Shown here one piece after another: positions 18,526 to 19,008 of a DNA stretch of 41,838 bases (the first letter of the stretch is position 1; each line of letters begins with the position of its first letter). The notes under the pieces were generated by a model. The model worked only from the letters and a program-made list of their open reading frames with translations, did no database searches and was not told the origin of the DNA. The position numbers and the translations under genes were made by a program. Source of the stretch: Chiloscyllium plagiosum. Lineage: Eukaryota. The stretch lies in the NCBI RefSeq assembly GCF_004010195.1, contig NW_025214871.1, positions 2,555-44,392 on the forward strand. Reading direction: 5' to 3'.

Positions 18526-19008
18526 TTATTGGACATTCATCTTTTCGAGTCCAGGAGCTACTATTTCTTGGAGGACCTTCTGCACTGCATCTCGGGTGGG
18601 GTGGGTGCGAGGCTGTACCACTATATTCACCTGTCTATAGATATCGGAGAAGGGTCTATCTATTCCACACCACCAGGCTTCCTCATCGCTCTTCTGAATC
18701 TTGGTTATTATTACCCTTGCCATGGCACCTCCTTGCTTGATAACAGGAAAGCGATATCCCGTGTCAGGTGTAACTGTAGCCGTGGTGGATACTACTAAGT
18801 GCCAGTAACTGAGTACACAAGGATCTCTGCGTAAATATTTTTTGACTTATTTATAGTCGTCCTGGTTACCAAACGGGCATGGGTGGCATGTAAAGGTCAA
18901 CTTAACATCCTTGGTTAAGATTACCGTCTGCGATTGTATCCCAGACACCCCTGCCTTCACGACTCGTCTTGCCATGCAGCCCCATATTTCTATGAGCCTT
19001 CTAATCAC
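18526..19008 (-). pseudogene. ERV-linked ORF remnant with signal-peptide-like leader and CD300/pIgR (CMRF35-like) Ig V-set domain
   Basis: One frame reads VIRRLIEIWGCMARRVVKAGVSGIQSQTVILTKDVKLTFTCHPCPFGNQDDYK*VKKYLRRDPCVLSYWHLVVSTTATVTPDTGYRFPVIKQGGAMARVIITKIQKSDEEAWWCGIDRPFSDIYRQVNIVVQPRTHPT... It has one internal stop at 18847-18849 and starts 10 nt after the integrase stop. Confidence 0.7.

Follow-up and report, generated by a model that had tools for sequence, protein, structure and literature searches.

The window, a 41,838-nt stretch of the Chiloscyllium plagiosum assembly GCF_004010195.1 (contig NW_025214871.1, positions 2,555 to 44,392), carries on its minus strand the remains of a provirus whose env breaks off shortly after an immunoglobulin (Ig) V-set domain. 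In window coordinates, the features are:

22268..23214, no strand: assembly gap, probable site of the provirus 5' end (comparison with the copy on contig C8)
19018..22264, minus: decayed pro-pol (protease to integrase) with many stops and frameshifts (tblastn with the pol of contig L121, 30-56% identity in pieces)
18940..18985, minus: Env start codon and broken signal peptide, with a short frameshifting deletion near 18,975 (sequence; dispersed copies)
18610..18939, minus: CD300/CMRF35-like Ig V-set domain, N-terminus of Env SU, with a stop at 18849-18847 and B-F Cys at 18888 and 18669
18551..18609, minus: first part of the Pro-rich linker that joins V domain and SU body; env homology stops at 18,551 (blastn against dispersed copies; linker of relatives)
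10794..26852, no strand: amplified block, in which non-viral DNA flanks the env-truncated remnant of the provirus (blastn with L119, L120 and L038 as queries)

On the minus strand, frame 19008-18526 agrees with its description in the earlier note, which was made from the sequence alone. It begins just past the integrase stop (19020-19018) on the same strand, is interrupted by a single stop, at codon 54 (18849-18847), and places the B-strand Cys at 18888-18886 and the F-strand Cys at 18669-18667, a spacing of 73 residues in the translated frame. An integrase core lies upstream (rve, E 6e-12). The leader read from this frame is real leader sequence, but only the leader's tail: the start codon (18985-18983) is in a different frame from the V domain because of the short deletion near 18,975, and dispersed copies elsewhere in the genome have a longer leader with a Met and a hydrophobic core. 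One Cys of a second pair found in the family is missing here. Alignments of dispersed copies to the window by blastn end at 18549-18613, and the last 8 codons of the frame, past 18,551, are read-through into non-env DNA. Of Env, the window thus keeps only a leader remnant, the V domain and the start of the linker. No LTR was found elsewhere in the window, outside the gap at 22268..23214; the provirus 5' end likely falls in that gap, because the matching stretch of contig C8 has LTR-like and leader/gag-region sequence. The broken leader, the internal stop and the loss of env past 18,551 make the window copy a dead one that encodes nothing functional.

Results

Amplification of a dead fragment

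The genome was searched with the C-terminal 105 residues of the window frame, which gave at least 151 matches (150 of 390 candidates scored). A copy on contig C8 is colinear with window positions 10,794-26,852 in five blocks at 86-94% identity. The internal stop of the window is carried by 28 of 29 close copies, the remaining one being gapped there, and a sense codon occupies that position in 18 of 20 loci with long frames. The close copies also have the same broken leader and the same env cut at 18,551, past which they run on into the same non-viral DNA; in none of 30 close loci was SU present within the ~1.9 kb or less downstream, and integrase lies upstream in 27 of the 30. The shared stop and cut, together with the colinear C8 block, show that the window contains one dead fragment multiplied along with its flanks: the copy was multiplied passively within a duplicated block.

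The block, at least 16 kb including the dead proviral fragment, occurs in dozens of copies at 35-38 Mb and 67-76 Mb of C8 and on high-numbered contigs. Separately, the window has local direct duplications at 1785-5989, 9435-13878 and 38405-39277 (spacing ~2.3 kb, 3.4 kb and 0.57 kb; 89-98% identity).

The window frame closes 28 codons past the V domain, and 43 of the 150 matches listed are at least 85% identical and cluster on C8 and high-numbered contigs. Both features could be read as signs of a secreted accessory protein, or of a truncated V gene co-opted by the host and amplified on purpose. We consider this very improbable, given that the internal stop, broken leader and env cut are common to the close copies and that the amplified unit takes in many kb of non-viral flank. 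The suggestion in the earlier note of a separate accessory protein likewise lost its footing, because the early frame end comes only from a deletion common to the dead subfamily; relatives encode V and SU/TM as a single ORF (see below).

Env architecture in this genome

Twenty dispersed loci were selected for long open frames. Integrase lies upstream of the V domain in all 20, SU downstream in 19 and a TM core in 16, so that the order integrase-V-SU holds in 19 of 20. Their translations give, in order though across broken frames, a Met and hydrophobic leader, V domain, Pro-rich linker, CWIC motif, basic furin site, fusion peptide, ISD, CX6CC and membrane anchor. The TM pieces pass Pfam TLV_coat, and MLVIN_C is also matched in the family. 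For a sample chosen independently of V, we took the 30 best TM matches in the genome: a colinear V domain lies upstream in 21 and an inverted V piece in one, and the remaining eight comprise one locus with V beyond an N gap, six with large internal deletions and one that ends with its contig. LTR pairs were found in three of eight loci scanned (L033, 95-96% identity; L048, 86-93%; L118, 90%), and 10 of 25 ten-kb stretches retained remnants of gag.

Five internally deleted envs (P0020, P0072, L035, L081 and L083) join the V domain straight to the TM end; in P0020 the frame is open and would encode a small Ig protein anchored in the membrane.

Intact relatives in other fishes

Word-index protein searches with the V domain of this genome gave no match. 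A profile search did, returning 332 matches at E<0.001 among 1.84 billion representatives; the best single-domain matches run into the same SU start, and the named ones are from Xyrichtys and Callorhinchus. A search with the Xyrichtys protein gave 14 matches, four of them full-length V-set + TLV_coat proteins of 611-623 aa, one named from the teleost Siganus; the two rescanned both exceed the V-set and TLV_coat cut-offs. With a V fragment named from Sparus, the V-bearing relatives named are Xyrichtys, Siganus, Sparus and Callorhinchus. The two-domain architecture is already visible, unnamed, in Pfam annotations. IMG/VR held no relative.

One of these proteins, P0158, has in a single ORF a signal peptide, CXXC in SU, furin site, fusion peptide, ISD, CX6CC and membrane anchor. 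The basic site at the furin position is weaker in P0153 and P0155, the SU body of the relatives has a CW(I/V)C motif, and the leaders differ among relatives. Integrase precedes V in other loci of this genome too, and in intact relatives the frame continues from V into SU/TM, which bears out the proposal that the domain served as the N-terminus of env. The V domain is almost certainly the N-terminal domain of a gamma-type Env.

Contig L121 carries an open gag (519 aa), an open pol (1447 aa) and a V-env, with gag and pol sharing a frame that a single stop divides; this arrangement, with MLVIN_C, would fit the gamma/epsilon class as far as sequence features go. Words of the L121 env were present at half or more in 11 runs under eight organism labels, and run X23 had two reads for it; among the runs containing it, none is on record as an RNA run. 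Of 181 raw RNA reads of one run on L121, four have a GT..AG joint ~390 nt upstream of the env start, and the same joint occurs in one contig of a presumed RNA run and is absent from the contigs of the DNA run. As the reads are few and come from defective copies of a relative, they are a weak indication of env splicing. The apparent env splice donor (L121:2158-6085; four reads and one contig) lies just past the gag stop, not before gag. The primer-binding-site-like sequence also differs between L121 (L121:101-120), where we take it to be tRNA-Leu-like, and the copies of this genome (L033:1176-1200 and L048:945-965), where it is presumably tRNA-Pro-like.

An open 489-aa Env of the same family, P0159, has a leader-like N-terminus and no V domain. 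Its SU/TM is 52-60% identical, and midpoint trees (no outgroup) place it among the V-bearing Envs. It may represent loss of V or the state before capture. This sibling suggests that the V module is detachable, and V is perhaps dispensable, since the V-less Env is open.

Identity and fold of the V domain

When the internal stop of the window copy was replaced by X, the repaired frame scored weakly against Pfam V-set (E 0.044, 14.4 bits, below the cut-off of 26), with pIgR and CD300 among its best PDB matches (E 0.02-0.06). Natural open copies from the same genome did better: three of seven pass the V-set cut-off, and for one of them the only three PDB matches at E<0.01 are pIgR (E 2e-5), CD300a and CD300c. 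Among relatives, P0158 scores 36.5 bits, P0155 41.7 and P0009 27.6 against the same cut-off of 26, and ESM Atlas gave V-set clusters at 0.90-0.94. The Cys positions of the relatives provide the B-F pair and a second pair near strands C-C', from which the disulfides are predicted.

We computed an AlphaFold model of the intact P0158 from an alignment enriched in host V domains. The V domain was mostly at pLDDT 72-97 by block, with one block at 63; a V-domain fold from viral copies alone (six, near-identical) reached pLDDT 40. Compared with known structures by VIA, the P0158 V model is closest to CD300a (Z 13.3, rmsd 2.1 over 103 residues), with which pIgR and CD300c (Z 12.4 each) are tied within 1, and the top Foldseek matches are pIgR D2 and CD300a. 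An Asp in the F-G loop is conserved in most viral V domains and aligns near the F-G loop Asp of CD300a. The CD300/pIgR-like V-set fold that had been proposed from motifs is therefore borne out by the Pfam and PDB matches of the open copies and by the structure searches. A structure search of BFVD returned as its top match Q2VF29 (687 aa, 17% identity), which may be a salmon retrovirus Env.

The same searches bear on whether the domain is instead a diverged RBD-C, the IgV-like receptor-binding domain known from MLV, EnvP(b)1 and ZFERV, that passed from one virus to another with no fresh capture from a host. RBD-C is both IgV-like and mobile between Envs in the account given in the main text of Hotzel 2024 (bioRxiv 10.1101/2024.03.17.585361), and the EnvP(b)1 domain appears at Foldseek rank 19. 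Its fit is poor, however (rmsd 11.1, outside the 50 best VIA rows); RBD-C as described there also lacks the B-F disulfide that the Cys positions predict here. Above all, sequence searches return host CMRF35/pIgR-like proteins, a kinship that largely refutes this reading, and we give it little credence.

Host receptors and origin

A teleost CMRF35-like query found the receptor exons of this genome in clusters on contig C26. In all 10 host V exons checked there, a GT donor follows the G strand; the viral copy has integrase upstream and no donor at that position, so that its viral, intronless context, as first proposed, holds and the window locus does not read as a host gene. The C26 region at ~11.04-11.56 Mb and 7.5 Mb (L053, L059, L069, L101-L112) contains at least 15 host CD300/pIgR-like V exons.

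That a deletion at the window locus merely brought a host CD300 exon next to an endogenous retrovirus by chance, which the earlier note had named as the outcome that would overturn its reading, can be set aside as next to impossible. We found nothing in favour of this: integrase precedes V in all 20 dispersed loci and in 27 of the 30 close ones, other copies of the family carry the domain, and the host exons form their separate cluster with splice donors. The intact V-set + TLV_coat ORFs and the gag-pol-env order of L121 refute it as well.

A tree of V domains was built from 87 sequences over 115 columns (21 viral, 12 host exons of this genome and 54 of 137 other host domains, near-duplicates dropped), with the host set retrieved by the viral profile. 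All 21 viral domains form one clade (100/99), nested in a 100/98 group with 16 host-type receptors; the exons of this genome fall elsewhere. Four of the 16 were looked up, and all four are teleost. The host origin put forward earlier is upheld by this position inside teleost-type CMRF35/CD300-like receptors, and we regard derivation of the viral V from the host CD300/pIgR family as very likely. An AU test did not reject the grouping of viral V with the receptors of this genome and 11 similar host domains (p 0.294). With this p value, 115 columns and a host set retrieved by the viral profile, a teleost donor is only suggested, and we lean towards a ray-finned fish as the source.

The viral V domains of the relatives are ~42-47% identical to one another and ~30-40% identical to host receptors, and the clear host-like part of Env is about one V exon long, which leaves the capture of a spliced mRNA together with its leader, as proposed in the earlier note, no more than a possibility. 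The capture is old and common to several fishes, not particular to the window locus.

Selection on the V domain

Selection was assessed in 37 distinct copies by comparing variants shared by at least four copies with singletons. In V, shared variants comprise 21 synonymous and 28 nonsynonymous changes and singletons 46 and 156, with ratios of 0.50 and 1.27 (Fisher's exact test, p 0.007; recurrent CpG changes included). The ratio for shared variants is 0.23 in SU, 0.29 in TM and 0.40 in integrase (p 0.07 for integrase), so that V is less constrained than SU and TM (p 0.037). These counts are what purifying selection on V in the replicating virus would give, at a lower strength than on SU/TM.

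Discussion

We read the window as a dead, env-truncated copy of a fish retrovirus whose gamma-type Env starts with a CD300/CMRF35-like V domain, likely captured once and likely used for cell attachment, and we give this reading a probability of roughly three in four. An ancestral virus would have recombined with a host CD300-like transcript, inserting about one V exon behind the env leader, the position of the receptor-binding domain in MLV-type Envs. Purifying selection during replication would then have kept the domain, and the virus would have carried it to both bony and cartilaginous fishes. On the virion, V would anchor the particle to some ligand on the cell surface, which might be a membrane lipid, as with mammalian CD300, and the SU body and TM would then trigger fusion.

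Mammalian CD300 binds membrane lipids, and the F-G loop Asp has a role in this binding. That background and the conserved Asp make lipid binding by the viral V possible, by analogy, as a lead. An attachment role as such is the function we would favour. The SU body may hold the main receptor site, given that it is mostly below pLDDT 50 in the P0158 model.

With the same architecture and origin, the V domain could instead be an immune decoy or shield that competes with host CD300/pIgR-like receptors or masks SU. Its weaker constraint relative to SU/TM would suit such a role, as would the open V-less sibling P0159 and the Ig-fold immune modulators of many DNA viruses among the BFVD matches. Two observations weigh against it and make it rather unlikely in our view: V is retained across relatives only ~42-47% identical within it, and it occupies the place of the gamma-type receptor-binding domain, which precedes the Pro-rich region according to excerpts of PMC9967133.

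The broadest form of the attachment reading is evenly balanced in our judgement: an undescribed retroviral lineage, spanning bony and cartilaginous fishes and intact in some teleosts, would have turned a captured CD300-type domain into an attachment module, possibly lipid-binding, as the second independent capture of a host IgV by an Env and the first in a CXXC-type Env. The fish database entries called 'Ig V-set domain-containing protein' (P0009, P0175) are probably pieces of viral env and not immune receptors.

Comparison with known systems

No description of a CD300 or V-set domain in a fish Env appeared in the openly available literature searched; subscription journals, Repbase/Dfam or preprint supplements (the Hotzel sequence tables; 295 chondrichthyan Env candidates) may already contain the family. 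Zebrafish Env38, percomORF and the chondrichthyan syncytin-like Envs share the furin site, CXXC, ISD and CX6CC with this family, and Env38 has 428 aa (in the excerpts of PMC10072453), against the 431-442 aa that remain of the Envs here once leader, V and linker are taken away. The portions searched of PMC10072453, PMC8672886, PMC12813294 and the chondrichthyan Env preprint mention no V-set or Ig domain in these fish Envs, and by these descriptions they stand apart.

Host CD300/CMRF35-like and pIgR-like receptors share with the viral domain the V-set fold, the second Cys pair in the C-C' region, the D-x-G-x-(Y/W)-W-C-G motif and the acidic F-G loop residue. Each host V domain has an exon to itself, with a phase-1 donor, and is carried on a stalk and TM or arranged in tandem; the viral V is joined to SU/TM, and its B-C loop is longer.

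Gamma-type Envs with RBD-C (MLV, FeLV, EnvP(b)1, ZFERV) likewise have an N-terminal Ig-like domain, Pro-rich region, CXXC, ISD, CX6CC and TM. In the main text of Hotzel 2024, no relatedness in sequence to a host gene is detectable for RBD-C, which also has no B-F disulfide; the viral V here is ~30-40% identical to host receptors, and a ~200-residue SU body follows the CXXC. That text leaves the host-gene origin of the MLV-type IgV-like receptor-binding domain open, gives one example of host capture, in alpha-like Envs, and proposes that newly gained domains first serve as extra tethers. The family described here would be a further, independent case, in a gamma-type Env with CXXC, that offers a recognisable donor family, intact ORFs and a natural V-less sibling and, if the reading is true, a traceable model for the rise of the MLV-type receptor-binding domain.

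The one precedent reported there is the SIRP-derived IgV domain of alpha-like mammalian Envs, presented as the first host-derived receptor-binding domain; the main text names no further class among CXXC Envs and has no match for CD300, shark or fish. Measured against it, a CD300-derived V in a CXXC-type fish Env would be new, and the SIRP-like Envs are the closest precedent among the literature searched. Those RBD-C SIRP-like Envs (Env-Dbi, Env-Per) also carry a host-derived canonical IgV with a B-F disulfide at the SU N-terminus, occur, as that text has it, in several host lineages and in one provirus, and have a proposed role as a receptor or co-receptor binding module. The present family would work in a similar way but does not belong among them, as it matches CD300/pIgR-like proteins and has CW(I/V)C. 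By the same account they differ in donor (SIRP, against CD300/CMRF35/pIgR here), in hosts (mammals, against fishes) and in Env type (alpha-like without CXXC, against CXXC in SU).
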